NCBI GenBank assembly: GCA_023920165.1
Contig: CP089281.1
Coordinates: 496,001 to 560,000, forward strand
Length of the DNA: 64,000 nucleotides
DNA from: Curvularia clavata
Taxonomy: Eukaryota
Reading direction: 5' to 3'
Shown: positions 30,187 to 50,167 of the stretch, in pieces
Layout of the letters: the number at the start of each line of letters is the position of its first letter
How positions within the stretch are numbered: position 1 is the first letter of the stretch
The notes under the pieces: model-generated
What the model was told of the DNA's origin: nothing
The model's database searches: none
What the model saw: the letters and a program-made list of their open reading frames with translations, nothing else
Translations under genes and position numbers: made by a program

Positions 30187-30279
30187 GCGAGCGTAGTCTA
30201 GTGGTTATGATGTCTGCTTTACATCTTTCAATCAGATATAAAGCGCAGAAGGTCGGGAGTTCGATCCTCCCCGCTCGTA
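30187..30279 (+). tRNA. tRNA-Val(UAC) with a 20-nt intron (30224-30243)
   Basis: Acceptor stem GCGAGCG/CGCTCGT; D-arm with A-box TAGTCTAGTGG; anticodon stem TCTGC/GCAGA with loop TT-TAC-A^C; T-arm GGGAG-TTCGATC-CTCCC; discriminator A. Confidence 0.92.
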
Positions 30280-32230
30280 TGCATCAACAGAGACTTTATT
30301 TTTGCTTTTTGGACAGCTTGCGTCGTTGTGAAAAAGCATCTCGAACGTTAAGGTGGATGAAGCCTGCCAAATTGCGTGGTGTAGAATGCTTATTTTTAGC
30401 CTTGAAACCAAAGTGCCCATGCGATAGGAACAACTGCTCCGTAGCTTGTACTCAAAGAGATACGTCGCAAAGAGCTTTGTCATGAAAAACCCAGTCATTA
30501 CTCAAGGGTCGTGCAAGATCAGACGAAGAGTCTGCTGACATTTCTGTTGGATGAATACAGTGCGCGCAAACCATTAGTTAATAGCTGCGGAAACCTCTCA
30601 TACCGTAATGAAGCGTTAAGGACTGTACTCAGACAATGGTATCTAACTTCATCTTCTTGCTTTATTGCGCATGTTGCTTTGAATCGATCGCTCCTCTAAT
30701 TTGAACATGTCTTTTGAAGCTTAGTGGTATTTCAAAGAGATCGCAACAGTGCATTGTAAGAAGGCCTAGAAGAGGGTCGATGTGTAGAGCCTCATATAGC
30801 TGTAATGTGCGCGTTATCACCTGGCTTGTTATTCACAATATAAAGTCGTGGTATCCTAGGTCCATGACTGTATAAACTAACCATTAGCTATCTCTACGTA
30901 AGCAGGATATATAAGATACTGCCCATAGGGGCCGCGATTTAGTACGTCAGTTGAGAGCCGAAATTAAGTCTGGTACCAATTGGTAGAGCATCCTCCTTGA
31001 GATGTTCTTGTATCTAGAAATGTATTGTAGAAGGGTCCCTACTATAGGAAACCCCTCTGAAAGACTCATTCCAGTGAGTCGGTCAGGCACAGATATTTGG
31101 TTTAACTATGCCGCTAGGACTGGCCATCAGTCAAGTCTGGTGATGGCCGGAGTTGAGTAACCGCATAAAATCTGAGGGCACCGAAGGCCCATGGATTTGA
31201 ACGATCATCATTGAGAGAGTGCCGAGACATTTGGCGGGAAGCTTGGTAGCAAAAAGCCATCTAACCCCTGTGAGAAATGGTCTCCACGGTCTAGCACCCT
31301 ACGGAATGCATGCGTGATAGCTACTTCATGCCCTAGTCGCGACACGTGCGCTGTAAAGATTCGCATATTGTCGGTACATTTAGGCCTAATCTGGATCGGA
31401 GAATCTGTTGCAACAAGCTTTTCTTGGTCCTCTGGAACCTTCATTCATGCTCACGAAGATATTTCACTTACGGTGGGGGTAAAGGTGAGGTCGCCGGAGT
31501 CGGTGATTTGTGCCCCTCCTTTGTGGCCTTGGAGACGAACTGCCCCACCACGATGGGGACTCGCAAAAGTCTACGCGTCATAGCTTTTGCAACTTGTCAA
31601 CAATGATAGAAGTTATTCCACAGCTCAGAGGATACTTGCTGGAGCTTCATTCATTAAATTACTGAGAAACTTGTCATATTGCACCACTCGAAGCATCCAT
31701 AGGTTGTGTAGTGTATGTTGATTCTTGTCCAATGTGCGTTAAGCATACGCTCATTCGATTCCAGGTAGTGGTTATCACTTCAGATTTTGACTTCTCAAAT
31801 TTCTGATAACCCCGGTTCGGTAAGACAATCCTTCATGGTCGTCCATGTGATATCAGTTCCTAACATTGAGAAGAACCCGGGCACGACCTTGTAAACTTCT
31901 TTTTTTGTCACTTTCGTAGCCATTACCAACAAACTTGCGGATGTAAAGGAGAACACTTTTGTCACTGATGGGCAGGACTTTTACCTCTTGACTGAATCGA
32001 TATTGCCTTTTCTCTCTATCCTGACAACTTGGTAGGTCTCTAACTATTGTTTTTTTTAATTGAACGATATGTTCAATCCCTGTTTCGTTGATGAATAATA
32101 AAATAAACATAGAAGACTTTGGAAATCAATTGGGTAGCTTCGCTGTGCAAAGCTTACAATAATAACACTACATGATATTGAGTTGAGCCGACAGGAACAA
32201 CAATGAATTGATGAGATAATCTAGGAGCTA

Positions 32231-33454
32231 TTATATTTGTCGGGCGGGCTTCACAGTACCGACGCATGCTCCAAACCCGACTCCCGCGCTGCCGTCACCG
32301 AGTACACCAATGTACCTTACTTCGTCTCCATCGTTGAGGTAGCGTAGTTCAGTTCCATCGCTCAGTTGGGTTGGTGCCTTGCCATTCTTCGTAAGTTCAA
32401 GCAAGCATCCGTGCTCATGCTTTTGTTCGCCCGATACTGTTCCGCTGGCGACCAAGTCTCCAGAGCGAAGCCCGCAACCGCCAATGGTATGGTGCGCTAG
32501 CATGTGTCTGAATGTCCAATACATCGTCTCGAAGCCGACCTTGCATGTTGTTGTCTGGACTCCGTTTCGGATGATTTGTCCTTCGAGTTGAATGCTGTAA
32601 TTTGTGCTCTTGGGGTCGTCCATAAAGGTAGCAACAGGCTCCATTCGCTCTGGTGCAGGCACTTCAAAGGGCTTCAACGCTTCTAGCGTTACGATCCAGG
32701 GTGCAATAGAAGTCATGAAGTTCTTTCCGTTGAAAGGGCCTAGGGGATTCATCTCTAGGCCTTGAATGTCTCTTGCACTCCAGTCGTTCAGCAGAACGAG
32801 GCCGAAGATGTGCTCATCGGCGTCTTTTGCATTAAGGATTGTGCCTGGCTCTACGGGCTTGCCAATGACCGCAGCGACTTCCATCTCGTAATCTAATCCT
32901 CGAGATGGACCAAATATGATTTTCTTTTCAGAAACGGTGTAGTCCTCGATGAACTGGCCCAAGGGTCTTGTGACTGATGCTCCTGATAGGGTGATGGAGG
33001 AACATCGACCCGCGTAACCCACTGGATACTTCTTAAAAGCAGGTGGGAATGCTCGGACTCCCATCACAGCTTCTCCCGCATTTAGAACATGGTTCGCTGA
33101 CGCGCTGTAATCTGTGAAGTCGCCAATGTGGAGTGGCAGATAAAGGCTCACATCATTAATGTTTTCCGCATAATTGCTGTGCAAATTGCTCTTGTAGGTT
33201 TCTTGAATTGCGGATCTCACTTTTGCGTGTACGTCTTTTCCGAGTGCGGCGAAGGTGTTCAAGGTGGGTTCGCGAAAGATAGAGGATAGCGGCGCTGGAA
33301 TTGCTTTGAAGGCATCGTGCTCAGTGATTTCAGCAAGAAATATGACCTGATCCTCAATACGTGTGACACACTGTGGACTTTTCCGCTTCGAAGAGCTTGC
33401 AATTCCGTAAGGAATGTTGTTAATGCTAAAATGCGAGGCGTAACTGTCTGCCAT
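32231..33454 (-). CDS. Fumarylacetoacetate hydrolase-family protein (divergent FahA paralog), single exon
   Basis: SHFSINNIPYGI, GDFTDY..H, PVGYAGRCSS, LDYEMEVA, LLNDWSARDIQ, PLGPFNGKNF, SGTVSG, GCLLE. Confidence 0.92.
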   Translation of the reverse strand: MADSYASHFSINNIPYGIASSSKRKSPQCVTRIEDQVIFLAEITEHDAFKAIPAPLSSIFREPTLNTFAALGKDVHAKVRSAIQETYKSNLHSNYAENINDVSLYLPLHIGDFTDYSASANHVLNAGEAVMGVRAFPPAFKKYPVGYAGRCSSITLSGASVTRPLGQFIEDYTVSEKKIIFGPSRGLDYEMEVAAVIGKPVEPGTILNAKDADEHIFGLVLLNDWSARDIQGLEMNPLGPFNGKNFMTSIAPWIVTLEALKPFEVPAPERMEPVATFMDDPKSTNYSIQLEGQIIRNGVQTTTCKVGFETMYWTFRHMLAHHTIGGCGLRSGDLVASGTVSGEQKHEHGCLLELTKNGKAPTQLSDGTELRYLNDGDEVRYIGVLGDGSAGVGFGACVGTVKPARQI

Positions 33455-34358
33455 TGTGATGGTAGGAACTGGTTATTGAAATGATTTTTGTGAGAGGAGT
33501 ATCTTGTAAACGCTACAATGCTCGATGTTTAGCAAAGCAATAACAGCTTAAGCTCACTGTGTCCCTCCTAGGTCTGAGACCGCAACCGTGATGGCTGTCA
33601 ATGTGTGGGGTCGTAAGTGGATATTTCGGAAGTTGTTCCTCCACATCGGGCCCTCCAGATAGAGTATCAATTGTAATCGGTATCCGAAATGACCGAGATA
33701 CATAACGCGGTATTCATATCGGCTATCTGGTGCTCTATGTGTGCCTGGTGTTAGTATAGTAGCAGGGCCTTTAAACGTCTTGAAGGACAGAGTAGCCCGT
33801 GATCTGTGTAAAGGGGCTTGGGATGTTTGTGTGCTGACCCTACCTTCATCTCAACGAGTCCAGAGCGCCTGAAATGTACTTGCTTATGACCTGGAAACAA
33901 CTGAACAGATGCATTGCCCAGTTAATGCTGTAGGCGGTACGACTCCTTGGGGCAGAGCTCGGTTTAGACAAGTGCACATGTTATCGATGGTTAGCAGGAC
34001 TGAAATGCGATCCGCAAGCGGTCGCCCACGAACCCCTCTTACGCATGACCCCACTAGAGAAGCCGCCTCATAGCTCAAACCACTGTTTTGAATTCCAATG
34101 CGCCATATGTGCAGCATGACCCCGCCCTAAAGGCGCGGGCCCTGCGCCGGCAGATGCAAGTGGTATAGCCGCTCATCAACGCGTCCCCCACATCGGAAGA
34201 CCATGGACGGATTCTTGGACGGTTTCTACATCTGCCCTTTTTTTTTGTTACAGTCTATCAATATCTGGTTTCCTTAAGTTTTTCATCTATGAGATCAAAT
34301 TCAAGCAAAACAACAACCTCACACATCACATTACCACATTTTGCGGCTATCCTTCAGC

Positions 34359-34919
34359 ATGGCCGCTAAAAGCAATATTCCAAACGACCTTCCCAAGATC
34401 AACCGCTTTATCACAACCCACGATCCTGCTACAAAGCAAGCCATCTTCTCCGATGCCGTCCCCGAAGAGCACAAAGTCGATCCCATACCAGGGGCTGAGT
34501 TCCGGCTGGGATATGTCACCAAAGGGTTTCCTGTTGATCTGAACAAGGATGCCGACCTAGCAGTCTACAAACCATATCTAGAGAGCTCTCCTGGCCTTGT
34601 TGTATCGGGAGGTACAGTCCTGCGCTTCGTAGACGTGGCGCCTGGTCATCTGTCGCCGATGCACCGGACTGTATCGCTGGACTATGGAGTTGTGTTGGAG
34701 GGCGAATTCGAGTTGGTGCTGGATTCGGGAGAGACCAGACGCATGAATCGAGGAGATGTTGCGATTCAGAGGGGCACAATGCACGCTTGGAGGAACTTGA
34801 GCACGACATCTTGGGGACGAATGATGTACGTTCTGCAGGAGTGCAAGCCAGTAGAGGTCAATGGGGAAGTGTTGAAAGAAGACTACGGCACCATGAAGGG
34901 CGTGCCAAAGTCGTCATAG
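34359..34919 (+). CDS. Cupin-2 barrel protein (fungal MHRTxSLDYG type)
   Basis: RFITTHD, GGTVLRFVD, SPMHRTVSLDYGVVLEGE, GDVAIQRGTMHAWRN. ATG at 34359 in agcATGg context. Confidence 0.9.
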   Translation: MAAKSNIPNDLPKINRFITTHDPATKQAIFSDAVPEEHKVDPIPGAEFRLGYVTKGFPVDLNKDADLAVYKPYLESSPGLVVSGGTVLRFVDVAPGHLSPMHRTVSLDYGVVLEGEFELVLDSGETRRMNRGDVAIQRGTMHAWRNLSTTSWGRMMYVLQECKPVEVNGEVLKEDYGTMKGVPKSS

Positions 34920-35194
34920 CGTATCTAAGAGGCACTGGCAGTGTTGTCTTCTTTGCGTACTACAAATAAAACATGTATTCTCTGCATGACCATTTTTATG
35001 GAAAGAAAGATAGTCACAACATGATTGCTCGCTCAATGATACGGCGAATGACACAAACTTTCAAGCACAAGCAAAACAAATCTCGAGTCGTGAGGCTCGT
35101 ACGAAGGCTCAGGAACGGAACTCGCCCCGACCACCTAGGTAGCGGGGCATTCCGCGACACTGCGCTAGACACACCAAATAGATGTAATACAATC

Positions 35195-35206
35195 CTCCAC
35201 ATTCCG
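35195..35206 (-). promoter_or_regulatory. Composite motif CGG-AAT-GTGGAG upstream of the CocE hydrolase
   Basis: Plus strand CTCCACATTCCG, ~137 nt before ATG 35343; repeated in other cluster promoters. Confidence 0.65.
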
Positions 35207-35342
35207 AGCCCGCCCCTCCAAACGTCGCATTTGGACGGCGGCGCGTCGTCGGCACCGGCGCTCACAGTGCGTTGCAACGGTTCTTTTATATCCAAATTGT
35301 CTGACAAAATACATTCCTTCATACTTCATCACCATTGACACC

Positions 35343-37243
35343 ATGTCTGAACAGTTGGAAATCAAAGATGCGCATACTGTCGACGAAACGTCGTTTCCCT
35401 ACATTTTTGAGCAGAACGCTGCGGTTCCGCTCAAGTCATCCTCCAAAGGAATTATCCGTTGCAATGTCTACCGCCCGAAATCAACCAAGGAGGGCACAAA
35501 ACTTCCCGTGTTGGTGACTTACGGACCATATGGAAAAGACATCCACTACAAAGAGTACGCGGGTCGCGTTTTACCACTGTATCCCTGGGACTGACACTTT
35601 ACAGTTTCCACGGAAAGTCATTCTCGGAAGTGAATTCTGAGCACCATTCTGATCACTCAGCATGGGAAACTCCCGACCCAGGCTTCTGGACGAAGCACGA
35701 CTATGCCATTGTGCGCGCGGATGAGCGTGGACTGGGACAATCACCAGGCTTCCTGGACACCATGTCCAGAGGAACCAGCGAGGCTTTCTTCGACGTCGTC
35801 GAGTGGGCAGCTGAGCAACCCTGGTCATCTGGAAAGGTTGGGTTGTTGGGCATCAGCTACTACGCTGGTTCGCAATGGCGTGTAGCGGCGCGAAGACCCA
35901 AAGGTCTAGCTGCTATAATACCGTGGGAGGGTATGAGTGATTATTACCGAGACAGATGCCGCCACGGAGGTATCTTGAGTAACAAGTTCATCGATTTCTG
36001 GTGGTGAGCATCGCTTTCCTCCTTTCCTAAAAAGCTCAACGCTCATGCTCTCAGGAACCGACAAGTCATCACAAACCAGTATGGTCGCCCAGGCCGTGCC
36101 GAGCGAAACTGGGGACCAGACACAGTCGACGGAAATCTATCCGAAGAAGTGCGCGCAAAGAACCGACAAGATCAGACTATTGATACCGCGAAATTCAAGT
36201 ATCGCGACGAGCTGTACTACGCGAGTAAAGAGTATGATATGAGCGACATTGAAGTGCCACTACTCTCAGTCGGCAACTGGGGCGGGATTCTGCTTCACCT
36301 TCGTGGCAACATCGAGGGCTATGTTCACGCCGGATCAGAGTTCAAATACCTTCGAATGATCACAGGCAGGCACGATCTGCCTTTTTACTACAAGGAAGAG
36401 GTCGAGATACAACGAAGCTTCCTTGACGCTTTCCTCAAGGGAGATGACCGAGTTGGCTGGTCCGTAAAGGGCAAGCTGCCTCCAGTCGACATGGTTCTCC
36501 GCAAGGGTGACGTAGGCTTCGATGATGCCGAGAAAGAGAAGGTGTACCAGAGGCGGACTGAGAACGAGTGGCCCATCGCCCGAACTCGTTACACAAAGTT
36601 CTATCTTACTCCATCTCAGAGTCTGACTCAAGTCCAACCCATTGTCAGCAGACCGCAAAAGCTCACATACGAGGCGCTGGGTACGCTGGACGACCCTAGG
36701 CGACTTCAGTTTACCACGGCTCCGTTCGAAGAAGAGACGGAGATTACGGGACACATTGTTGCCCACTTGAACGTCTCGCTCTCAGCTCATGCCATGTACG
36801 ACACACCCAGCGACATTGACCTGTTCCTCACTCTACGCTACATTTCGCCCGAGGGCAAGGAAGTCTACTACACCGGTACCGCCGGCGACCCTATTCCCCT
36901 CGCCAAGGGTTGGTTGCGCGTCAGTCTCCGCAAGACGAACCCCAATCATCCCAAGCACCGGGAGTACCTGCCCTGGAGAGACTACTTCAGCACCGACGTG
37001 CAGCCCGTAGTTCCCGGCGACGTCTATGCCGTTGACGTCGAGGTCTGGCCGACCAACGTTATTGTGGAGAAGGGCGGCAAGATTGTGTTTGAAGTCAGCA
37101 GCGGCGATACACAGGGCAGTGGTATCTTCCAGCATAACCATCCTGAGGATAGGAGTAAAGAGAAGTTTGCTGGGTGGAACCATATCAATTTCAGTGAGAA
37201 GGCGGTTAATTATGTTACGCTGCCGATTGTGCCACCGAAATAG
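35343..37243 (+). CDS. CocE/NonD family (peptidase S15-like) serine ester/amide hydrolase; exons 35343-35554, 35605-36003, 36055-37243
   Basis: PVLVTYGPYGKD, RADERGLGQSPG, WSSGKVGLLGISYYAG (GxSYxG nucleophile elbow), LHLRGN, GRHDLPFY and a C-terminal jelly-roll (EITGH, GWLRVSLR, VEVWPT). Two ~50-nt canonical introns. Confidence 0.92.
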
Positions 37244-37633
37244 AGGACGGGTAAGATGTTTGTAGATAGGAAACGAGATGATATTTACAATGTAACTATG
37301 TATTGTAAGAACGACTATTTTTGAACTTTCACAGCTCTTGTCTAGCATTGATCTGTTTTAATCTAGTGCAATCTCATGAAGGAGTAATACGTGCTTATCT
37401 GGTGAAAGTTCTGCCAGTAAGGATGGTATATTGCTGTGCGCCCGCTTATGAATTTACGCAGTATCCCACTGCAAGGATGGGTATGACAACAAGCTTCCTT
37501 AACCGAAACAATAAATGGCAACGTCGACTAGGGTTGAGTGAAATGGAATCAAAATAAACGTGATTGATGAAGATACATATATGTCGAACCAAAAGAAAAA
37601 GAATGCCACGGAAATAAAGTAAATTCCAACTCG

Positions 37634-38497
37634 TCAAGTCCACCTGCCAATCTTGAACTGGCTATTGCACATGTTGACTAACTCCCAGTCTTCAGCACCG
37701 AGTTCGCACTCGTCGGTTTCCTTCTTGCTGCCATCGACAGCACCAGCAACAAAGCATGCGGCCATGTAGTGGTCGTCGGTAGCATGTGCGTCCCTGAACA
37801 TGGGGTGCTTCATCAGTCTTGTAATACCACGGGTGAGACTGCCCTTCTTTGCGCCCTTTCTGCAGCAGCGAATGAAAACGTCCTCGACGCACTGGCGGAA
37901 CTCGAGCATGGGAGCTTCGGGCGGGTATGGCTGGGCAAAGTTGTCCGAGTACCTGAGCATTTGGGCCCAGTGGTTGCGGTAAAGGTTGTGGACGGCGCCT
38001 CCGGTTCCGATGATGAGGTATCCCTCGTCGCGGAACTTGGAGAGGATGTTACCGACGCGGGCGTGCAGGTGTGGGTCAAACCGAGAGTTCATGCTGATAA
38101 TGGTGGTGGGCGGGCATTTCTCTGGGAACATTCTAACGAGAATGAGATATGTGTCGTGGATCCAGTCAAACGACTCGTTGGGTCGGGCATCGATGGCCTT
38201 TTCCCGCAGAGCGGCAATGCATTTCTTTCCGGTCTCGAGGTCCGGGACAAGCTCGTAGTCTTTGTATTTGCGAGGGTGGACATAGGCGACGGGAGATTTG
38301 GCGGGCTTGGGGTTCATGGCAACGTCAATGCGGTTTACGCCACGAGCGTCCCAGTGGGCGCCCATCATGATGACGCCTTTGAAGCCATGTGCGAGGGCTT
38401 CGTCGCCACAGGCCTTCCAGTATGTGGCGGATTTGGACTCTTCGCCAAGCATCATGGTCGAGCCATGGGAGAAGAAGTAGACTGGGGGTATCGCCAT
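37634..38497 (-). CDS. LigB-superfamily (class III) extradiol ring-cleavage dioxygenase, DODA/YgiD-like, 287 aa
   Basis: FFSHGS, GAHW, DWIHD, LIIGTGGAVHNL, AHATDDHY. Start taken as MAIPPVY (38497); the ORF track extends upstream to 38725. Confidence 0.9.
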   Translation of the reverse strand: MAIPPVYFFSHGSTMMLGEESKSATYWKACGDEALAHGFKGVIMMGAHWDARGVNRIDVAMNPKPAKSPVAYVHPRKYKDYELVPDLETGKKCIAALREKAIDARPNESFDWIHDTYLILVRMFPEKCPPTTIISMNSRFDPHLHARVGNILSKFRDEGYLIIGTGGAVHNLYRNHWAQMLRYSDNFAQPYPPEAPMLEFRQCVEDVFIRCCRKGAKKGSLTRGITRLMKHPMFRDAHATDDHYMAACFVAGAVDGSKKETDECELGAEDWELVNMCNSQFKIGRWT

Positions 38498-38729
38498 GGC
38501 TGTGAAGATGGTCTGTGTATACTGCAGCAAGAGAGAGGGGTGAATGTGGGTATTTGGATGGGTGCAGATTGCAGTATTCAAGGATGGCTCTGGCAATGGC
38601 CGTAGTGCTGGTCGTAGGGCATCGACGGTAGAGCAACACAAGTGCCGTTCGCAATGCGGATGCTTTGGAAGCTTATCCCGTCTTAGTCGATGGTCTCTGT
38701 GTGGCCCGGCGGTTTCCCATGGCAAAAGT

Positions 38730-38741
38730 CGTAATGTGGGG
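38730..38741 (+). promoter_or_regulatory. One-mismatch motif CGT-AAT-GTGGGG in the divergent LigB/TF promoter
   Basis: Plus strand CGTAATGTGGGG. Confidence 0.45.
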
Positions 38742-39081
38742 GAGGGTTGGAAGAGATGGATATGGGCCCCATGGCGCTAACCGCAAAGCTCATGTGCGTC
38801 TTAGATTGTGCATATTGTTGGCTAGGGGCAGCGGGCAGAAGCCGGAAAAGGACCGCGTGGCATTGCAAGCGTGGATGGGGTGTGACCAAGGAGAGGATGC
38901 CAAGCAGGCTCTGCCATGTAGCCGCGAGTTAATGTGAAACTAGGAGAGCCCGGGCCCGCCGCGGCTCGGCATGCTCACATGGATGCAGACGCCGACTCCG
39001 CATTCTCTCCCCACACACCAACTTTATCTCCCTCCACTTCCCAGGCCCGATGCTGTCCCTCACCCGATAGCAACTCGCTCC

Positions 39082-42000
39082 ATGATGCAGGCCAGCCCAC
39101 CTCAACCAAAGCCGCTGCCCGCTCATGCCGAAATCGACGCCGAGCACGCCCGCCTGTTCCAGTGCAGCACGTGCAAGCGCTCCTTCACCCGGGCAGATCA
39201 TCTCACCAGACACGTGAGAGCGCGTAAGTCTTCGTCCCACTCGTCCCCGGACGCGAGAAAGGCAAGGTTTCTACTGGTAATACCCTCAAGTCGTCCTCCG
39301 CCTATTACTCGCAACCGACTCGGACGCCTCACCACCTATGCCCTTGCACATTCCACGTCCTTTTAGTTGTAGTTATGCCTCAAAGGTACCCGCCTGTTTT
39401 GTTCCCGTACCAACAAGATAGCTGTCTTGTTGCCTGCTACATGCATGACTTCAGACATCTTTTGGACCCCTGGCTGACCCAGCTCCAACAGACACAAAGT
39501 CCAAGCCGTATATTTGCCCAGTGTGCTCCAAGGGCTTTGCTCGCATGTAAGTACTGCTTAGTATGGCTGTTTCCATCCTCCTCTCGTCGCCCTTGCCAGA
39601 CTCGTCTGACATGCTGCAGTGACTTGCTTAAGCGACATGTAGCAAATCACGATACAGAACCCGCCAGCAAGCGACAGAAGCGCGAAATCTCCCGCGACAC
39701 CAGAGTGGTCCAAGCCTGCGAGGCTTGTTCGCAAAGCCATCTCCGATGCGAAGACGAGAAGCCATGCAGTCGGTGCAAAAAGAAGAAGATTCCCTGCAGG
39801 GTGCCGGATGCGATTCCTGGAGATGACAATGAGGTCCATGAAATTGATGCTGTGCATGCAGCACAGGACTTGCTCGATTTGTCCAACGGCTTCGACTACC
39901 CCTCATCGTTGCCGGGTCAGGGCGGAAGTGCGAATCCATCGGCCTCTGCAACTTCACAGACACCAGAACCTTTTCATGGTTCTGCTGGGCGCAGAGCATC
40001 CGAGGCGAACGCACCCGTCATAAACGCCATGCAACCGCCGCCGCCCAACATTGCTAACGGCCTTGTTCCCATGGACCATCAGTTCGAAGGCCAGGACCCT
40101 ACATCGTCCATGGCCTTTTTTGATAACTCGATCCAGCCCTTTGGCCATACGCCTGGTCAAAATTCTTTCCTGCCAGACTACTTTCGAAACATGCCGCCAT
40201 TCGAGTCTTTCCTTTCTGGACAGGCTACCCCACGTGGCATACTGGACCTCAGTTTTGACATTGACGTTGGTCTCACTGACCTTGATCTTGGATTACTTGA
40301 TCAATACAACTTTCAAGTTCCTTTTGCTGCAGACACGCCATCTACAGATGCTCAAGGTATGGAAAATCATAACCCAGAAACCGACACAGCACCAGGAAGA
40401 GCAGAAGCTTTCAAGCAGAGCGTATGGCGCTACCTTCCTCAGAGCTCTAGAAACCCTGTGGCAGAGCAAGTAAACTTGGCCTTTTCCGATACCGAAAGAG
40501 ACAGCCACAGGCGGTCGCACATCGCACACCGCCGCGTCATATCAGAAAAGTAAGCATGCATCCTATAGAATGACTGGTTCTGTTGCTAATGCTACGTCAC
40601 CTTTGTCCACAGACTTTCTCGCGTCAGTCGTGACCAATTGATGGCCTTGGTCCTGGGAACATGCACTCCGGAGAATGTCAAACGAATCGCATTAGCCTTT
40701 CCCAGTATAGAGTTACTCGATGGGCTGATTCAATACTTTCTCTCTTCCCCATCCCTAGACGCGCCAATGTGGTTCCATCTCCCAACATTCTCTCCCTCGA
40801 AACTGAACCCAGAATTGCTTGCAAGTATAGCGTCAGCTGGAGCCGCGACTATTCCCGATGCATCATTACGAAAGCTTGGATATGCCCTTCACGAGGCATC
40901 TAGAATGGGCCAATCTAGAACTTTCGAGGACGACAACACAGCCATAAGAGACCTTCAACATCTTCAGACCTTCCTTCTTCAGCTCGGAGTGGGTATGTGG
41001 AGCGGTATCAGCAGAAAAATGGAGATTGCAGAAAGCTTTGCCCAGCCGCTGATAACTATGCTTCGGCGGGGCGGCCGCTTCCGGCGGTCGACATGGAAGG
41101 AAATCCGCCCGGAGCCAGACGAGCAAGGATCAGCTTTGGAAAGCAAATGGTTGAGTTGGGTAAACCAAGAGTCGTTCCTTCGCCTCGTCTATCGCGCCTT
41201 TGAGTTTGATAGGCAATCCTCCATGGCATTGCTCAAGCCACCATTGATATCTTATGCAGAGATGCAGCTTCCTTTACCAAGCTCCAACGCTTTATGGCAA
41301 GCTAAATCAGCAACCAGTTGGAAAGCGGCATACTTGAACATGGCGCCAACGGCAACAAAGAAACCCTCGCCATTCGAATGCTTTTTTAATCTGGAACATC
41401 TTGCTCACCATGAATATGCTAGTCAAGTTTTCCTCTATATGATATGGGGCGCGATTTGGGAATATCGCCAGATGTGCACGGTAGCGTCCAAGGCACCATC
41501 CGGATCAAACAACAGCCTCATACTCTCTTCGCGCTATCAGGATCTCATGAAACAGCTCGAGGACTTTAGGCTCAGCTGTCCGCCCACGAACAAGAGTGTT
41601 GAGATAATACTAGAAATCATGCTAGTCCATCTCAATGCGCCTTTGGACGAAATCCAGCTTTTTGCCGGCATCGAAGGACAGGAAGAGGCGCGCAGCGCAT
41701 ACCTTGGCCTGCGAGACTGGGCAAACACTGCGTCAGCACGTCAAGCGCTGTGGCACGCCGGCCAGGTATTACGCGCAGCTGAAGTGGTGCCAAAAGCCTT
41801 GTTGACCAACTTCAACGCCATTGCCGTCTATCATGCTGGGCTAATTCTATGGTGTTATGGATTTCTTAGGCGATCCGCTGCACTGGAATCAACACAGGTC
41901 GATACGACAGTCATACTTAATGGAGACGACTCCCTGAGCGCTCGCAAGTTCATCACATTAGATCGCGGTATCCCATCGATAAGAGCCTATGGGTCGCATA

Positions 42001-42146
42001 CACCGACGCAGTTGAATGATGTCTGTGGGGTTATGGATGGATTAATACATCTCCTTCGGGCACGTCACGATGCTTCAGAGCCGTCACCGCCACTGGTGGG
42101 GAACTTGGTCCAACTTCTGGAAGGTCTACGCTCTGCCATCAAATGA
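39082..42146 (+). CDS. Transcription factor with two C2H2 fingers, a Zn(II)2Cys6 cluster and a fungal-specific TF domain; exons 39082-39223, 39492-39546, 39620-40549, 40613-42146 (start may be 38971 or 38983)
   Basis: Spliced FQCSTCKRSFTRADHLTRHVRAH-TKSKP-YICPVCSKGFARIDLLKRHVANH, then ACEACSQSHLRCEDEKPCSRCKKKKIPC. C-terminal WFHLPTF, WVNQES..RL, LPLP...LWQA..A..W, ARQALWHAGQ. Confidence 0.92.
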
Positions 42147-42548
42147 CGACCTTAGTAATGCGAAAATGTTCAAGGTCCACCGACGCTGACAATCAGTCAA
42201 ACGCCGCTCGGCAGATACTGTTGATTCTTGTGAAGCTACTTGCTTGTTTTGGCAACATGCCCCCTTATCTCGCTGTATGCGCACAAATTTGAAGTGCATG
42301 CGCGTCCCTTGACCCCAACAACAGGCATACTTGTCGCGTCACATCACCATGCGTATGGCCAACGCTCAGATCCATCCAATCGGCCCGAGTGATGGTACAT
42401 ATACTAAGACTTTTGCGCAGGGTCACGAAGCTGCTCGTCCACTGTGGCGGCGGCTATATGCTGCGTTTTTGGCCGGCAGATCTAGACAGAGCTGAATCCC
42501 CGCCGTTTTAAGCCATATTGAGAATGGCCTTACTCACAGACATTCCAT

Positions 42549-42560
42549 CTCCACTTTCCG
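42549..42560 (-). promoter_or_regulatory. Composite motif CGG-AAA-GTGGAG upstream of the MFS transporter
   Basis: Plus strand CTCCACTTTCCG, ~260 nt before ATG 42820. Confidence 0.6.
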
Positions 42561-42819
42561 ACTTTACCCCAGACTGAGGGGACAGACTGGGGTAAACCCG
42601 AGGTGGATGCATCCAATGGATAGTCGTGAGGCAAGCCATCGCTGTTCTTATTGGTTGCAGACATGCAACTGCACGCGGACGCGGACGAGGGTTGGCAGTG
42701 TTCCTTCAAAAGCCGTGCAGTCTATATAGATTGAATAAGCTACCTAGTTCATAATCAACGATCACTGTCGGTTTTCTGTCCTGTCATCTTTTTTGTTTTG
42801 ATCGACATCGGCAGCCGCA

Positions 42820-44670
42820 ATGACATCTCTGAGTGCGGCGTTTAAGCTTTCCAAAGAGGAGGTCCGCAATGCCAGGCCCCCTGGAACAGCTACACTAGTT
42901 GGTGAGGCACGATAACAAAAATGCTCAGGATTGCAATAAGCTAACAACTGTTTCCCTCACCAGAACATCTCGAATTGACGGGAGTACAGACGAACAGAGA
43001 TGAAATTCGTCTGGTACCCCAGCCTGCGGCAGACCCGGCAGACCCGCTCAACCTGCCCATGTGGCGAAAGCTGGCAGTGCTGGCTGTCATGTCTATTCAC
43101 CCCTTTGTAGTGAACTTCACATCTTCATCGATAACGAGTGCTTTCCCGGTATATGCGTCGACGCCAGTACTGGGCCTCCCACCACAACCCTTTTCGAAAC
43201 TGAACTATTTCGCCGCCGTCAATATCCTCATGCTAGGAGCATCCAACCTGTGGTGGGTGCCCTTGTCCAACACATTTGGGCGCCGCCCAGTGGTGCTCGT
43301 GAGCCTGTTAATTCTGGTTTTCTCGAGCATGTGGGCAGGGTTGGCGACGAACTTTGGTAGTCTCTTAGCAGCGCGTACATTTATGGGCATTGGAGGAGGA
43401 CCTGCCGATGCTGTCAGCCCCGAGGTGATTGGCGAGGTATTCTTCGTTCATCAGCGCGGACGTGCAATGGTGTGTAGTTTAAGTGTCGATTTCGCAGAAG
43501 TAGGGTACTAACATGCTACGCGTAGGCTATCTACACTTTCTTTTTGGCTTTCGGGTCTCTTGTTGGTGGCTGTGTCGGTGGATACATTGTCGCATCCATG
43601 GGCCTCTCCTGGATACACTGGATGAACGTCCTCCTTTCCGCCATTACCTTCGTTCTCTGCCTCTTATTTCAAGCCGAAACACTGTACAACCGCCCACAAA
43701 CTTCAGTTGCGCCCGATTACGCCGTTGACAACAAGCAAACGGTAGACACCAAAGAGAGCGTTGTCGCCACTGGCACTGTGTCGCCAGCCTCATTCCCTCC
43801 ATACTCACATCTCCGCTCTCTGAGACTTATCTCTTATCAGTCAGGCATCGGTAAGAAGTTCTTAGCCCCGTACAAGACGCTTAGACTGCCTGGAGTATGG
43901 CTGGTGTCGGGCTGGTATGCTGGGCTCGTTGGACTTGTTGTGAGTAAAGATCGCTGCAAGAAACCATGGAAAGACGCTTGGCTGACTGATTTGATTGCAG
44001 GTTACCTCTTCAACAACTGGTCCTCAGTTTGTCGCTGCTCCACCATACCTCTGGGGTAAAGACGTTGGATTGGTTAACGCGGGCGGTCTCATCGGTGCTT
44101 TCCTTGGCTGCGTAAGTATTTTGACCCAGTATCTGCTTCCGCTCATCATCTAACGATCCTTCTTTCTATCTTTAGATTTATACTTACCTACTCACCGACT
44201 TCACCACCAAACGACTTGCAAAAAAGGACCTACACGGCTTTTCTGAGCCTGAATCCCGTCTCGTGACCGCCCTCCCTGCACTCTTCGCCGCCACAATCGG
44301 CTCCCTAATCTTCGGCTTTATCGCCCAGAACCCTTCGCCAAAGGGATGGGTAGGCCTCGAATTCGGATTCGGCCTCATCGCTTTTGGCCTCATGCAGGCA
44401 CCCTCTGTAGGCTTCAACTACATCATCGAGGCGTACGGTGCGCTTGGCGGAGACTGCTTCGTCGCCATTACTACGTCGAGGGCAATTGTCAGCTTTGCAT
44501 GGACCTTTTTCGTCGGAGATTGGTCAATGCACAGGGGCCCAGCTGAACCTTTTGGTATCTTTGCATTGCTCATGGGCTTGTTTGGCTTAATGACCATTCC
44601 AATGCTCATGTGGGGTAAGCGGTTGAGGATCTGGACGGCAAAGTGGGTCCCAGAGGGAAAGATGAATTAA
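42820..44670 (+). CDS. Major facilitator superfamily transporter; exons 42820-42901, 42964-43469, 43526-43939, 44001-44111, 44176-44670
   Basis: LVPQP..DPADPLN.P.WRK, motif A SNTFGRRPV, EVFFVHQRGRAM, ETLYNR, EPESRL and ~12 hydrophobic segments. Four canonical introns keep the frame. Confidence 0.9.
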
Positions 44671-44971
44671 GGTTCTCACGTCAGATGTCTTGGATTATGG
44701 GGCATGATTCTGGTACTTGTGGGGAAGAAGATGTAATCAAATCACGAACACATGCTCATTTAAAACCTTTATGAAGACTGAGTCCACCGTGTTCTTTGCT
44801 GCTGCTTAGGCCAACGCATTGTAAGGTATATGACTTTATAGTACAAAAGTGAAAGCTTTATATACAGTCAATATCTCCTTTTTTTCATCGAAGAAAACCG
44901 CGATTGCTCGATTGATTGATATGGCTATAGACAACACAAATGGACATGGTAATATATCAAAGGGAACATAT

Positions 44972-46526
44972 CTAGATAAACGCCATTTTCCTCAAGCCTG
45001 CTCTAATCCCAAAGAACAGCGTTGCCCCAATGCACGTCAACAGCGGAATACCGTACACGCCCAAGCCGACAAGGATACCCTGCTCAAAATATCCAATCGC
45101 AATCGACTCTTTCCGCTTCTTCTCCTTGATCTCCTGCGCGGCTCTGCTAAGCAACTCCGTCGCTGCCCTCGCCGAGTCCTTACCACCCAGCACCTTAGCC
45201 AGCGCCATTTGCGACGCAGGGGCAGTGATGTAAGCGGGAGACAGGCGGGTGAAATGCTGCTTTGTATACCTTTTCTCTACGTCAAAGGGTTGAGATGAGG
45301 GTGCCGCGGGGCCAAGCAGGAGGCGCAGTGGGATGTGGTTGGCAAATGAGGCGTCTGCAACAACGAACTGCGAGAGATACTTGTCTGTTTCTGGGGTACC
45401 GAAGTGATATCCTGCTAGCAGTGTCTCTTGAGGATCGAGATCTTCTTCTACAAGGCTGATGGCGTGTTCGAGGGAGGTGATGGATGAGACACAGAAAACA
45501 GGTTGCTGTGATTTTGGTGGCAGACTGAGGAGGTTTGAGAGGTCGACAATGGCACCGTTGTCGCCTTGCGTGACGACGTTGAGTTTCCAAGCTTTGCTTG
45601 AGCAGAGAGTCTGGAAAGTGGAGGATACGCGGGAGGAACGCTGAGTTTCTTTGGGATTGGTGGTGCCGTTGGAGACGCCACCAGAGCCGGCGAGGAAGCG
45701 GAAGGAGTGCTTGAGGACGTGCTCGAGGAAGTCTTTTTTGATGAATTCGTTGACGAGGACGATGTCAGGGGCGTAGGGAGATGTGCCACCGAAGGCGAAG
45801 CGTGCTGTGACGAGTTGTTCGGCGGCGGATGCTAGATCGGCTGTGCGGTCTACGATGGCGACTACTTTGCCTTGGGGTGACACGTGCTGTGAGTATGTCG
45901 GCTGTCTGATTTGTGTTTCTTGAAGCACTTGTAGGCATGCTGAGAGGGATTCTGATGGGGGGTCTGAGGAGATGGCGAGAAAGGTGTCTGATTCCAGGGC
46001 TTCAGCGAGCAGCTTGCGGAGTAAAGATGGAAGAGCACGGAGATTGTTTTCAAGCTGTGGTATTGTTAGTTGCGTGTGTGGATAGATAGTTGACGTTGAA
46101 GCTGACCTTCAGAGCCACACAAGCGCCTGCTGCTACAGCTGCGCTCAAAGGCGAGATGACTGAGAAGAAAGGCGTGTGGTCTTTTCGAGGCTCAATGTAT
46201 GCAACGCCCCAAGGAACTCTCCGATCACCAGCGTTTTTGCCCTTTGTAATTTGGTATTCGTCCTCTAGCTCTTTTGTAACATCAATGGACGCATAGTGCT
46301 CCTTGACCAGATCCAGCCCAATTGCGACCTCGGTAGTTGCTTCCTCGTCTGTTACATGCGTGTCTTGCTTGAGAGCATCTCGGATGGAACTACTATTATT
46401 TCGCAGCGTGTCATGCAGCGCCTTGAGCTGTTTCTGGCGGAAGAAGGCATTGTGGCAGCGCGCTGAGAGGGCCGTCGCCTGGAGACTGTCCAGCGCGGCT
46501 TCGGGGGTGATTGGCGACGACGACAT
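44972..46526 (-). CDS. Aldehyde dehydrogenase-like protein (class 3/fatty-ALDH-like fold) lacking catalytic residues, with a C-terminal TM anchor, 500 aa; exons 46526-46107 and 46054-44972
   Basis: FRQKQLKALH, RRVPWGVAYI, PLSAAVAAGACVALK, AIVDRTADLASAA, ARFAFGGTSPYAPDIVLV. Intron AAG|gtcagc...actaac...acag|CTT. Confidence 0.85.
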
Positions 46527-46701
46527 GATGGTAACTCCGAGACAGGCAACTAAGAAAACGACAACAGAAAGATGATTCAAGAGTGGGGAGAAAGCGACAA
46601 TCTCTACTTTGTAAGCTACAGGAAGTTCTCGGATCGCTTCGGTATTATTTCGAGCCCAAATGACCGGCAATGTGGTGAGACGATGGACAGGGAGAAGCTC
46701 C

Positions 46702-46713
46702 CCCCACATTCCG
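46702..46713 (-). promoter_or_regulatory. Composite motif CGG-AAT-GTGGGG in the divergent ALDH-like/small-protein promoter
   Basis: Plus strand CCCCACATTCCG, near the middle of the 413-nt intergenic region. Confidence 0.65.
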
Positions 46714-46939
46714 AGGATGAACAACGCCCCACCCCAGACTGACCCTGTCTCTCCCGTCCCACCCGCCGCCGCGGTGTCTCCGCGTTTGCAAGCGTCGGAA
46801 AGTGTTCTATTGTAGTTCCGACCTTGTTGCTTACGATTCCCAGACCTGTTACTTTCGCTGACTGCAACCGTCCTGTTTCTGCGGCCGTATCCCAACTATC
46901 CCACGAGAAACGGGACGAAAGAAGCGCACTGCAATCAAG

Positions 46940-47356
46940 ATGTCAGTAACAACGACAGCAAACCCGATTCACTACACTCTCGAAGCGACGCTTGCAGACT
47001 ACGATCTTCACCACACCGACGACCATGATACCAGTTTGAACTCGCATCCCAATCCGGCCCCAAATGCGCAGAATCCAAGTCACTGGCCAGCGGACCATCG
47101 TCGCGTGCCTGCATACCGCCCAATTAACAGGGAGCTGGACCAAAGCGAGAGGAGGGTGTACTTGAACGGAATCGAGCAAGCCTTTGTAGGCGTCATGTTT
47201 ACGGGTGTATTCCTCGAATCGGTGAGTTCTCTGAAGCACATAGAGTAAGTAGGTTGTGAAGAGGCTAATTAGCGATTACAGGCTGTATCCAAGATTTGGC
47301 GAAATTCCTTGGGACGCGTATGGAATGTTGGATACAAGATCGGTGGAGAGTGGTGA
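46940..47356 (+). CDS. Small hypothetical protein, 118 aa, with one hydrophobic segment; exons 46940-47221 and 47282-47356
   Basis: ATG in aagATGt context; intron gtgagt...gctaat...acag. Spliced C-terminus WPADHRRVPAYRPINRELDQSERRVY...AFVGVMFTGVFLES-AVSKIWRNSLGRVWNVGYKIGGEW*. Confidence 0.75.
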
Positions 47357-47772
47357 AAAGGCCGTCTTCGTGGGTGCTTTGTTTGTCAGATTCTGCTTTA
47401 GTCTTCTTGTTTCAATTCCAATTTCAGCTAAAGGAGAATATCGCTTTTTATTCTGCTTTACGGCTCATGTGTTCCAAGCGTACTACATTCGGGATGAAAA
47501 TGGCAACCTTCTCAGTCTGGCGAGATGATTGCTGACTGCCTGTATCTACACCTCTTCATTATTCGAATGTGTTCACACATGCCTCGTTGGTATGCTGACA
47601 TGCATGGTAATCTCATGGTGTGTTACACCGGATGCAGCATCGATATGGTAGTCACCATACGTCCAATTATCCGATCCTCTTAAAGTCCATTCACACGCGA
47701 TATCGACCACACTCTGGAGCGCGTGGGAACCGAACAGGCGATTTCTGGAGTCAGCTGCTGCAAGCCCACTTG

Positions 47773-47784
47773 CGGGAAGTGGAG
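47773..47784 (+). promoter_or_regulatory. Composite motif CGG-GAA-GTGGAG upstream of the monooxygenase-ADC fusion
   Basis: Plus strand CGGGAAGTGGAG, ~175 nt before ATG 47959. Confidence 0.6.
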
Positions 47785-47958
47785 GTGGGCTGCTTTTCGC
47801 CTACCGAATCTTGGTGCAGTTGACTGCCTTGGTATCAAAACCAGAGCAGCCAGATCCGCGGCTGTCGTTCTGCATATTACGCTTCCTTCTTACTCTTCAA
47901 CACTTGCAGTGTTTCATGCCACTTCTCCATTCTTTGCAAAGCACCTTTACTCATCACC

Positions 47959-50167
47959 ATGGGCTTCACAAACGGCACTAACGGAGTTAACGGGCACGAC
48001 ACCAACTCAGAGCGCCCCCTCAACATCACAATATGTGGTGCGGGTATTGGTGGCCTAAGTGCCGCAATCTTCCTCCGACAAAGAGGCCACAAGGTTACTC
48101 TCCTCGAGGCCTCGCGCTTTGCCAACGAACTAGGTGCAGCTGTGCATCTCGCACCCAATGCCAATGGCTTGCTGCGGCGCATGGGCTTGATCCCCGAAGC
48201 CAAGGGAGCTGTGGAGTGTGAGAGGTTGACGCAGCTGCTTCCCAATGGCAAACAGTTGTTCAGCGTAGACTTGAAGCGGGAAGCGGGACGGTGGCAGCAT
48301 CCCTGGCAACTTGCACATCGTGTCAGCCTGCACAGCGAATTGAAGAGATTGGCGACCTGTGAGGAGGGAGCGGGGACGCCAGCAGTGCTGAAGCTCAAGT
48401 CAAAGGTCCTCGACGTCGATCCCAAGGAGGGCGTGGTAGTTTTGGAGAGTGGAGAGAAGATCCAGAGCGACATTGTTGTCGGGGCAGACGGCGTGCATTC
48501 CAAGACTCGTCTGCGTCTTCCAGGAGCAGAGAATATTAAGGTCTTTGGCAGCGGCAAGAGTGCCTTTCGTTTTTTGATTCCAAGGCAGAGGGCGTTCGAT
48601 GAGCCCGACACACGCAAGTTTGCGGACAAGGAGGGCCATCTGGTCATGATCTTTGCACGCGACAGGAGAGTTGTTGTATATCCTACGTCGGATAATACGC
48701 TGCTCAACTTTATTTGTATTCACCCGACTTCGGAAAGCCAGATCAACCCTCAGGAGCCAGAAAGCAGTGGTTGGCAGAACCAAGGTAACCTCGACAAGAT
48801 GCTGGAAGTGTACAAGGACTTCGAGCCGGCGGTCCTGAAGCTGCTGAGTATGGCGGATGAAGAGACGCTTAAAGTGTGGGAGTTGTTGGATATGGATCAG
48901 CTGCCGACTTGGACACATGAGAAGCTGGTTCTCATTGGAGACGCCGCACATCCATTTACGCCACGTAAGTCAATCCTCTTTTCCTAACAAAACGTGTGAA
49001 GTTCTCAAACTCATCATCCCTCTAGATCAAGGTCAAGGTGCTGGTCAAGCCATCGAAGATGCCGCCTCTCTCGCCGTGATGCTACCCCTGGGCGTGCCTC
49101 TTGAATCCATTCCCGCACGTCTCAAACTCTACGAGAAATGCCGATACGAACGAGCCAGTGCCATTCAAGAGTACTCCCGGATAGCAGGCAAAGATCTCGG
49201 CTCCGGTCCACCCATCGACACATACAAATTCACAGACTACAACTTCGGTCACGATGAATGGGACCACTCAAATCAAATGCTGCGAAAATGGGAATGGGAA
49301 AACAACAAGAATCTCCTCTGGAGAATGCCCACTGCCTTTGGCCCCATGCCCGGTCCCCGACAAGACTTCCACGGCCGACCAAGAGACGGCTCGAGCGCTA
49401 CCTTCAAAACTGCCAGCATTAAGTTTAAGACCAGCAGGACCGTCTTGGAGAATCTGTTGCCAAGTGAAGAGCTGAAATTCGCTGCTGCAGACACCACCGC
49501 CTACGCCACTTTTTCCGCAACCCAACTCGACAATCTTGAGTGGCTGGGCGGCCGCGGCTATAATCACTTTGGTCTCTACATCCACGGGATTCAGTACACG
49601 AAGGCCAACGGTGAAACAGTCGTAGGCACCTACCTCCCTGTTCTCTTCGAGAATCTCGCCGACCCCATTCTAAGTGGACGCGACGAACTCGGGTTCCCCA
49701 AGGTTTATGCCGAGCTAGACGTTTCCCACTCCGACGACAGGTGTACCCTTGAAGCAGGTTGGATGTCGTCGAAATTCTGTCGCATGGTGCTGTCAGGTCT
49801 ACAGCCTTCCTCTGCCGCAGAGCAAGCTGCAGCAGCGCCATTGCCTCGCGATGACGGTCTCATTTTCCACAAGTACATTCCTGCCACGGGCAGTCTGGCT
49901 AGCAAGCAGCCGTCTCAGCCCGATGTTGAGTACACTGCTTTCCTGCCTAGCGTCGAGGACGCACAGAGTGTAGAGAAGAAGGTAGAGTCGACGATGGTTG
50001 CGTCTGGGGCGGAAATTGCGTTTGACACATTGGACTGGAAGGCTCTGCCGACGCTGCATCACATTGTGAACAGGTTGCAGGAGGTGCCGGTGTATGGTGT
50101 TGTGGAGGCAAAGGTGGTACGGGGGACGGGCGTGAGCGATGTTAGGGTGGTACAGAGGCTGGGTTGA
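47959..50167 (+). CDS. Class A FAD-dependent aromatic monooxygenase (salicylate-hydroxylase-like) fused to a C-terminal acetoacetate-decarboxylase-like domain, 715 aa; exons 47959-48964 and 49026-50167
   Basis: GAGIGGL, VVGADGVHS and LIGDAAHPFTP-HQGQGAGQAIEDA across a 61-nt intron. C-terminal domain with LEWLGGRGY, YLPVLFEN, PILSGRDELGFPK, LPTLHHIV. Confidence 0.92.

Follow-up and report, generated by a model that had tools for sequence, protein, structure and literature searches.

The window analyzed here is a stretch of 64,000 nucleotides of Curvularia clavata (assembly GCA_023920165.1, contig CP089281.1, positions 496,001 to 560,000). It encodes nine adjacent genes, between its positions 32,231 and 50,167, which form a genuine conserved cluster: a FAH-family hydrolase, a cupin, a CocE-type hydrolase, a LigB-superfamily dioxygenase, a transcription factor (TF), an MFS transporter, an aldehyde dehydrogenase (ALDH)-like protein, a small protein of 118 aa, and a fusion of a flavoprotein monooxygenase (FMO) with an ADC domain (Table 1). 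The fungal nature of the window is evident from spliceosomal introns, Zn2Cys6 and Fungal_trans domains, and an intron-bearing tRNA. Domains were called by a Pfam scan of stop-to-stop open reading frames (ORFs), while the ends of the coding sequences were taken from our own gene models. An earlier, sequence-only reading had named nine genes with these domains, three divergent pairs among them, a tRNA-Val as the left boundary, and no core gene for polyketide synthase (PKS), non-ribosomal peptide synthetase (NRPS), or terpene biosynthesis. All of the domains were reproduced by the Pfam scan, and the gene models gave the divergent pairs FAH/cupin, LigB/TF, and ALDH-like/118-aa, with intergenic gaps of 905, 473, and 413 bp, respectively. 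The tRNA was identified by Rfam and called as tRNA-Val(UAC) by ARAGORN when introns were allowed; ARAGORN with default settings gave none. We failed to find PKS, NRPS, or terpene domains in the window ORFs of at least 120 aa; a backbone enzyme (PKS, NRPS, terpene synthase, or dimethylallyl tryptophan synthase), by which a canonical secondary-metabolite cluster is recognized, was absent from the scanned ORFs.

Table 1. Features of the gene cluster and its surroundings, in coordinates of the window.
Feature	Position	Strand	Stop-to-stop ORF with Pfam match	Remarks
FAH-family hydrolase	32231-33454	-	32231-33472(-)	407 aa, single exon
Cupin	34359-34919	+	34293-34919(+)	186 aa, small, single domain
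CocE/NonD (S15) alpha/beta hydrolase	35343-37243	+	35169-37243(+)	599 aa
CocE introns	35555-35604, 36004-36054	+		Inferred from frame and splice signals alone
LigB-superfamily dioxygenase	37634-38497	-	37634-38776(-)	287 aa, single exon
C2H2 + Zn2Cys6 TF	38971-42146	+	38944-42146	923 aa
TF introns	39224-39491, 39547-39619, 40550-40612	+		Skipped in RNA contigs of X6 and X12
MFS transporter	42820-44670	+	42945-44059 (MFS_1)	535 aa
MFS introns	42902-42963, 43470-43525, 43940-44000, 44112-44175	+		RNA contig joints
ALDH-like protein	44972-46526	-	44972-46895(-)	500 aa
ALDH-like intron	46055-46106	-		RNA
118-aa protein	46940-47356	+		118 aa
118-aa gene intron	47222-47281	+		Spliced in RNA contigs of X6, X12, and X17
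FMO-ADC fusion	47959-50167	+	47824-48987 (FAD_binding_3), 48848-50167 (ADC)	715 aa
FMO-ADC intron	48965-49025	+		61 nt; skipped in RNA contigs of two runs
tRNA-Val(UAC), 20-nt intron	30187-30279	+		Rfam RF00005, 55.2 bits; left landmark, outside cluster
Left-flank genes described in the text	17224-24374			Left of cluster
ORF without Pfam match	51562-52359	-		Directly right of fusion gene
ORF without Pfam match	53327-54190	-		Directly right of fusion gene

Conservation of the locus was analyzed with the FMO-ADC gene as the anchor. Metagenome contigs were scanned with an alignment of the fusion family, yielding 80 loci of up to 10 kb per side, and these were compared by tblastn with the nine window proteins, ten flanking ORFs of the window serving as controls. 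The loci fell into 55 groups at 90% or higher anchor nucleotide identity; a locus reaching 7 kb was available for 31 groups, of which 23 were divergent, i.e., their anchor was at most 62% identical to that of the window. Because of the 10-kb limit, all partner counts are lower bounds and absences are uncertain. Within 10 kb of the anchor, the divergent groups encoded the cupin (15/23), the TF (13/23), the CocE hydrolase (11/23), the MFS transporter (11/23; matches at 25–39% identity may be paralogs), the ALDH-like and 118-aa proteins (10/23 each), the LigB dioxygenase (8/23), and the FAH hydrolase (6/23). One or more partners were present in 22/23 divergent groups, three or more in 16/23, five or more in 9/23, and six or more in five groups. 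In contrast, the ten control ORFs gave a single weak match (25% identity, AMP-binding enzyme) in 230 cells. The conserved co-localization that the sequence-only reading had put up for checking is therefore real.

Near relatives (68–81% anchor identity) share the gene order of the window, which is what a chance adjacency of unrelated genes, held by ordinary synteny only, would also produce; in those at 68–72% identity the block from the TF to the FMO-ADC gene was retained and the genes to its right were changed. Divergent loci, however, keep the gene set without the order, as both order and strand vary among loci, and the flanks of the window are absent from them. Since content was kept under shuffling and flanking genes were not, more than synteny or chance is required, and chance adjacency is hardly credible. 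The TFs of divergent loci aligned with the same C2H2 and Zn2Cys6 N-terminal architecture, and sequential locus tags in four named genomes placed the LigB gene two to six genes away from the ALDH-like gene.

The composition of the cluster was modular. The ALDH-like and 118-aa genes were neighboring and divergent in 17/17 groups; CocE adjoined FMO-ADC in six groups (five of them divergent) and the cupin in six, FAH adjoined MFS in five, and LigB adjoined the TF in four, all divergent. These adjacencies, together with the many loci where some modules alone were found, are the grounds for regarding the locus as a toolbox of semi-independent two- to three-gene modules (CocE, cupin, and FMO-ADC; pseudo-ALDH and the 118-aa protein; LigB and TF; FAH and MFS), kept close by a common stress response and acting on different compounds. 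We consider this unlikely: in 22/23 divergent groups, modules are found again beside the same anchor, reshuffled rather than lost, six or more partners occur together in five groups, and the modules are accompanied by a TF with one and the same rare architecture, while the ends of the contigs at 10 kb make the absence of a module uncertain.

To find additional families, we clustered the complete ORF set of the 39 loci that reached 7 kb. Recurrent families without a counterpart in the window were a short-chain dehydrogenase (SDR; 7/23 divergent groups), a histidinol-dehydrogenase-like protein (5/23), and a VAO-type FAD oxidase (5/23). No backbone biosynthetic enzyme (PKS, NRPS, or terpene) and no methyltransferase, cytochrome P450, or prenyltransferase was found among the recurrent neighbor families of these loci. 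The term “self-contained”, applied earlier to the nine genes, was thus too strong, considering the modular composition, the counts for LigB and FAH, and the SDR, histidinol-dehydrogenase-like, and VAO-type genes added in relatives. Individual loci with extra genes (L034, L038, L041, L048, L076, and others) encoded an SDR, a PF00815 protein, an FAD_binding_4 oxidase, and families of ~175–200 aa without Pfam matches.

The LigB domain (PF02900) was recognized with 34.2 bits against a cut-off of 26.3. The nearest solved relatives of the protein were YgiD (2pw6, 8.7e-13) and DOPA 4,5-dioxygenases of plant and bacterial origin (8in2 and 29ky). The motifs HGS, AHW, IHD, VHNL, and DDH aligned with histidines of YgiD 2pw6 and were retained in nine orthologs; these histidines presumably bind the metal and act as a base. 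Among the 120 matches listed, homologs were 62–95% identical and distributed across Pezizomycotina, with PF02900 precomputed on almost all of them; the best named match among those listed, from Pyrenophora teres, was 88% identical, and none of them had a studied function. From its sequence, the protein is predicted to be an extradiol dioxygenase of the DODA/YgiD subgroup. It belongs to the same Pfam family and the same class of ~270–290 aa as the DODA/YgiD 4,5-DOPA dioxygenases and has His-containing motifs in common with them, but its similarity to solved members reaches only ~1e-12 to 1e-8, and its neighbors are hydrolases and a FAH rather than tyrosinase or pigment genes. According to the available part of PMC10512348, intradiol cleavage alone has been described in fungi, and in that of PMC12420386 the fungal LigB/DOPA-type clade is uncharacterized in catabolism. 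These portions of the two papers give intradiol or homogentisate-type cleavage as the characterized kinds and LigB-type cleavage as not characterized in fungi, which agrees with the earlier view that a LigB-based route would be unusual; the DOPA-type clade “warrants further investigation” there for the turnover of syringyl lignin.

In the fusion gene, FAD_binding_3 (2e-14) and ADC (3.7e-14; 53.3 bits against a cut-off of 29.8) were found. The fusion does not depend on the gene model because exon 2 is one ORF containing both the FMO motif “GQGAGQAIEDA” and the entire ADC domain. The motifs of group A FMOs (GxGxxG, GADG, and GDAAH...GQG..EDA) were present in the translation. The FMO half had 49 relatives in PDB, the best being the decarboxylative vanillate 1-hydroxylase 8x38 (1.9e-38); a 4-hydroxybenzoate enzyme, PhzS, NicC, and salicylate hydroxylase were among the other close ones. 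By sequence similarity, this half is closer to hydroxybenzoate hydroxylases of the decarboxylating kind than to plain phenol hydroxylases; of the earlier description as a phenol-hydroxylating class A flavoprotein, the assignment to group A holds, while the PDB matches shift the reaction type toward the decarboxylating enzymes.

The ADC half was modeled with a pLDDT of 91.4, and Foldseek retrieved only ADC-fold structures among 24 matches at E ≤ 0.001: 3cmb came first, followed by the pyruvate aldolase-dehydratase Sbi00515, Swit_4259, and MppR, and then by true ADCs (3bgt, 3bh2), with overlapping TM scores. The “GFPK” of this half aligned with “GIPK” of 3cmb, and the lysine of the “PK” motif is the one that we take to form the Schiff base. 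The window protein shares the fold of Sbi00515, Swit_4259, MppR, and 3cmb (E from 4e-21 to 1e-12, TM 0.55–0.75) and the aligned lysine motif, but is eukaryotic and fused to an FMO; true ADCs also match at ~1e-12, so the fold does not separate the activities. Judging from the model, true decarboxylases are no closer to the ADC half than Schiff-base aldolase-dehydratases are. An exhaustive profile-free search returned 939 representatives at E ≤ 0.001. Of the best 150 representatives, 29 were at least 600 aa long and matched in their C-terminal half, and the fusion is therefore a recurrent protein family. Its named members come from Dothideomycetes, Sordariomycetes, Eurotiomycetes, and Lecanoromycetes, and their annotations are all hypothetical or “FAD-binding”.

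The FAH protein carried FAA_hydrolase_N (PF09298, 3.3e-21) and FAA_hydrolase (PF01557, 7.9e-36) domains and aligned over its full length (residues 13–410) with solved FAHs, including 4qku (3.3e-87) and mouse FAH 1hyo (6.4e-79). The cupin matched Cupin_2 with 33.4 bits (cut-off 27.2); its closest solved relatives, 8x0u (6.3e-35) and 3es1 (6.8e-30), were both deposited as uncharacterized cupins, and a literature search for 8X0U gave no paper. Peptidase_S15 (1.3e-28) and PepX_C (1.3e-42) domains were found in the CocE-type hydrolase, an ortholog of which matched PDB 3ib3 at 3.3e-51; the hydrolase retains the nucleophile serine motif “GISYYAGSQW”, which aligns through this ortholog to “GVSYLAVTQW” of 3ib3. 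Identity was 57–74% in the 11/23 divergent groups encoding it. The TF contained zf-C2H2, Zn_clus, and Fungal_trans domains, and its spliced ORF encoded two C2H2 fingers followed by the Zn2Cys6 domain. The transporter matched MFS_1, Sugar_tr, and TRI12.

The ALDH-like protein gave two weak Aldedh matches (19.5 and 21.9 bits), which are below the cut-off of 23 bits; with 38.3 bits in the ortholog from locus L059, the fold relationship holds. In the alignment with P5CDH 1uzb, proline stood at Cys322 and serine at Glu288, which are presumably the catalytic cysteine and the general-base glutamate of that enzyme. The motif “FGGxSPYAPD” was free of cysteine in 10 of the 11 displayed orthologs, the eleventh being unaligned there, and the C-terminus was a hydrophobic anchor. 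By its sequence the protein is a class-3-like pseudo-aldehyde dehydrogenase lacking the catalytic Cys and Glu, as the term pseudo-ALDH in the earlier reading had implied.

Its constant neighbor, the 118-aa protein, has the motifs MSVTTT, LADY(D/E)xH, RRVPxYRP, and GGEW conserved among homologs. Neither the window protein nor its relatives had a Pfam match, Atlas contained no usable match, and the predicted fold was of low confidence (pLDDT 51.7). Spliced RNA contigs gave exactly the predicted 118 aa. The intron position in this family was common to Dothideomycete-like and Leotiomycete-like members; one database model (P0400, 139 aa; cf. P0401) apparently retains the unspliced intron at the same position as in the window gene. 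The conserved pseudo-ALDH/118-aa pair raises a question of its own, namely what part non-catalytic proteins play in metabolic clusters.

Contigs of four public runs were compared with positions 31800–50400; such contigs indicate presence and not the level of expression. Two culture-type runs (X6 and X12) are RNA since their contigs skip canonical introns: three in the TF gene, four in MFS, one in the ALDH-like gene (minus strand), and one each in the 118-aa and fusion genes. The models of these five genes are thereby confirmed. For LigB, an unspliced RNA contig covered positions 37335–38881, and the in-frame TGA of CocE sits within a 51-nt GT..AG intron. A root metatranscriptome contained contigs of at least 99% identity over eight of the nine genes, the cupin being the exception. 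In X6 and X12, the genes from LigB to FMO-ADC were covered, and the bins of FAH, cupin, and CocE had little or no contig cover, which can neither rank genes nor prove silence. With regard to co-expression, the contigs demonstrate transcription and splicing of cluster genes, but do not rank their expression.

Several details of the RNA contigs are recorded separately. One X6 contig of 5074 nt (39620–43468) ran from the TF gene over a 673-bp spacer into the MFS gene; it may represent read-through or overlapping untranslated regions and is not proof of a single transcript. A low-depth X6 contig (depth 3.3) skipped 51 nt at 34506–34556 with the CT..AC ends of an intron on the minus strand, within the cupin ORF, which is encoded on the plus strand; the contig probably stems from antisense transcription or from a long 5' leader belonging to FAH. 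Contigs of another strain had a 1-nt deletion, a 3-nt insertion, and a 9-nt insertion at 46700, 47397, and 47440, respectively, all non-coding and around the 118-aa gene. As these are not limited to one type of base change, they look like strain variation and not editing.

With a probability of roughly 0.6, we interpret the locus as an uncharacterized catabolic or detoxifying cluster of filamentous ascomycetes with its own TF, directed at a hydroxy- or methoxy-aromatic acid or ester and employing an extradiol dioxygenase of the DODA/YgiD type; among possible substrates, benzoates derived from lignin or tannin are favored. The features pointing to this interpretation are the co-localization, the presence of a dedicated regulator and transporter, the degradative types of the enzymes, the absence of backbone genes, and the strong conservation across classes (57–88% identity for LigB and CocE). 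The carriers of the cluster include plant pathogens, root endophytes, rock-inhabiting black fungi, and relatives of Aspergillus and Penicillium; such a range makes a common, ecologically relevant substrate probable.

The genes, domains, fusion, splicing, transcription, and shuffled co-localization described above were observed directly, and from them we infer the entire order of steps that follows. The MFS transporter would import the compound, and the C2H2 and Zn2Cys6 factor would switch the genes on. The CocE-type serine hydrolase could then split an ester, either of the incoming substrate or a methyl ester arising from an opened methoxylated ring. The FMO half would hydroxylate the ring to a diol or hydroquinone, probably with loss of CO2, which is proposed because its closest solved relatives do so. 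The DODA/YgiD-type LigB enzyme would open the ring beside the hydroxyls, the small cupin being a possible second ring-cleaving or isomerizing enzyme, and the FAH paralog would cut a C–C bond of the resulting diketo acid. Finally, the ADC half may form a Schiff base between its conserved lysine and a keto acid, leading to decarboxylation of a beta-keto acid or to a hydratase/retro-aldol reaction releasing pyruvate. The membrane-anchored pseudo-ALDH and the 118-aa protein may act together as accessory proteins without catalytic activity, possibly as a scaffold or sensor. In relatives, the additional oxidoreductases would be compatible with oxidation of a side chain to the acid before the FMO step.

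Several points weigh against this interpretation. The gene set varies, with LigB in 8/23 and FAH in 6/23 divergent groups within 10 kb (lower bounds), and a single linear pathway comprising all nine genes is thus not a necessary assumption. In the simplest scheme the halves of the fusion would act at non-consecutive steps, which is unusual for fusions. Judging from the substituted residues, the pseudo-ALDH could not oxidize an aldehyde by the normal mechanism; no role can be assigned to the 118-aa protein; and the closest solved relatives of the cupin are uncharacterized. One organism with paralogous clusters could account for some of the “independent” metagenome groups. No exact 6-, 7-, or 8-mer was found in six, five, or four, respectively, of six cluster promoter regions, which is uninformative since the shuffled expectation is also ~0.

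Several of the same data could be read as a non-canonical biosynthetic cluster without PKS or NRPS, which would form a tyrosine/DOPA-derived pigment or pyrone by extradiol cleavage, by analogy with DODA enzymes in betalain and muscaflavin formation, or a product derived from the 118-aa protein. DOPA 4,5-dioxygenases and YgiD are the nearest solved relatives of LigB; fungal DOPA-type dioxygenases are known from secondary metabolism according to a part of the 2025 paper PMC12420386; and authors of a survey of fungal degradative clusters (bioRxiv 10.1101/184242, passages thereof) find catabolic and biosynthetic clusters hard to distinguish. The 118-aa protein is conserved without a family or a confident fold, and transcription was detected in ordinary culture-type RNA runs. 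On the other hand, FAH-type and CocE-type hydrolases and a decarboxylating hydroxylase represent degradative chemistry, the recurrent families are devoid of methyltransferases, P450s, prenyltransferases, and backbone enzymes, and biosynthetic clusters, which evolve fast and are patchily distributed, differ from this widespread cluster with LigB and CocE 57–88% identical between classes. We therefore regard a biosynthetic role as quite improbable and retain the catabolic or detoxifying cluster as the preferred interpretation.

What is known of the intracellular breakdown of plant aromatics in fungi mostly concerns ring cleavage of the intradiol and homogentisate types. Bacterial meta-cleavage pathways with LigB-superfamily enzymes (protocatechuate 4,5-, gallate, homoprotocatechuate, and the lower naphthalene pathway) proceed through a hydroxylase, extradiol cleavage, a hydrolase, an enzyme of the FAH fold, and an aldolase. 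The window shows the same enzyme logic and a match to the LigB family, but it lacks a LigA subunit, its dioxygenase being of the single-chain DODA/YgiD type. Moreover, its hydrolase is of the CocE/S15 type and not a C–C hydrolase of the BphD/XylF type, the aldolase or decarboxylase role would fall to the ADC domain fused to the hydroxylase, and its ALDH appears catalytically dead. The 3-oxoadipate/intradiol, homogentisate, gentisate, and methoxyhydroquinone (MhdA) routes of fungi employ intradiol, cupin, or homogentisate-type dioxygenases. They resemble the window cluster in a decarboxylating FMO, ring cleavage, and a subsequent step by a FAH-family enzyme or esterase, with TF and transporter clustered in some species. 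The window differs from them in its LigB-type enzyme, none of which is characterized in fungal catabolism in the consulted parts of PMC10512348 and PMC12420386.

At the level of computational surveys, precedents do exist, as the sequence-only reading had allowed. Gluck-Thaler and Slot (bioRxiv 10.1101/184242, in part) defined degradative cluster classes of fungi named ARD (aromatic ring dioxygenase) and SAH (salicylate hydroxylase), which were used for Trichoderma in PMC10735191 (likewise in part). In the passages describing them, these clusters resemble that of the window: a LigB-type dioxygenase or an FMO similar to salicylate hydroxylase serves as the anchor, they were recognized by unexpected synteny, they lack biosynthetic core genes, and they contain homolog groups of FAH, MFS, and TF. 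ARD and SAH are, however, survey classes without biochemistry, and those passages mention neither the FMO-ADC fusion nor the pseudo-ALDH/small-protein pair nor the CocE link; the comparison is at the level of the classes. Literature searches for this combination of genes or for an FMO-ADC fusion found no description.

The locus thus places the orphan LigB enzyme in a conserved genetic context, together with a regulator and a transporter, with hydrolases, and with the fusion enzyme as its signature. A bolder version of the catabolic interpretation, tentative and doubtful in its full extent, is that it represents the first fungal meta-cleavage pathway of the LigB (DODA/YgiD) type, widespread in Pezizomycotina, run by a hitherto undescribed bifunctional fusion of a decarboxylating hydroxylase with a Schiff-base aldolase/decarboxylase, and organized on the membrane of the endoplasmic reticulum by a dead ALDH3-like protein bound to a small protein without a confident fold. 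Such a pathway could be the fungal syringyl-type or gallate-type aromatic route that recent papers call for.

Two characterized systems were compared with the cluster. In the tannic/gallic-acid regulon of Aspergillus niger, the six clusters induced in the tanX deletion (supplementary table 3) differ from the gene set of the window; GacA, a NahG-like FMO, is needed there for growth on gallate. The riboflavin catabolic pathway, as described in part of PMC12746152, requires P450, Rieske, and xanthine-oxidase enzymes, which are absent at the window cluster, and was rejected.

The genes surrounding the cluster were unrelated to its proteins: an AAA ATPase, an acyl-CoA synthetase, and Gpr1/Fun34 on the left, and EF-hand, Afi1/SPA, and patatin ORFs on the right. 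The left-flank region listed in Table 1 encodes an SMP-30/gluconolactonase-like protein, the acyl-CoA synthetase, and the Gpr1/Fun34/YaaH-type transporter, none of which was kept beside the cluster in relatives. The two ORFs directly right of the fusion gene were conserved, at 42–87% identity, in near relatives only (L001, L006, and L012), and they mark the right edge of the cluster.

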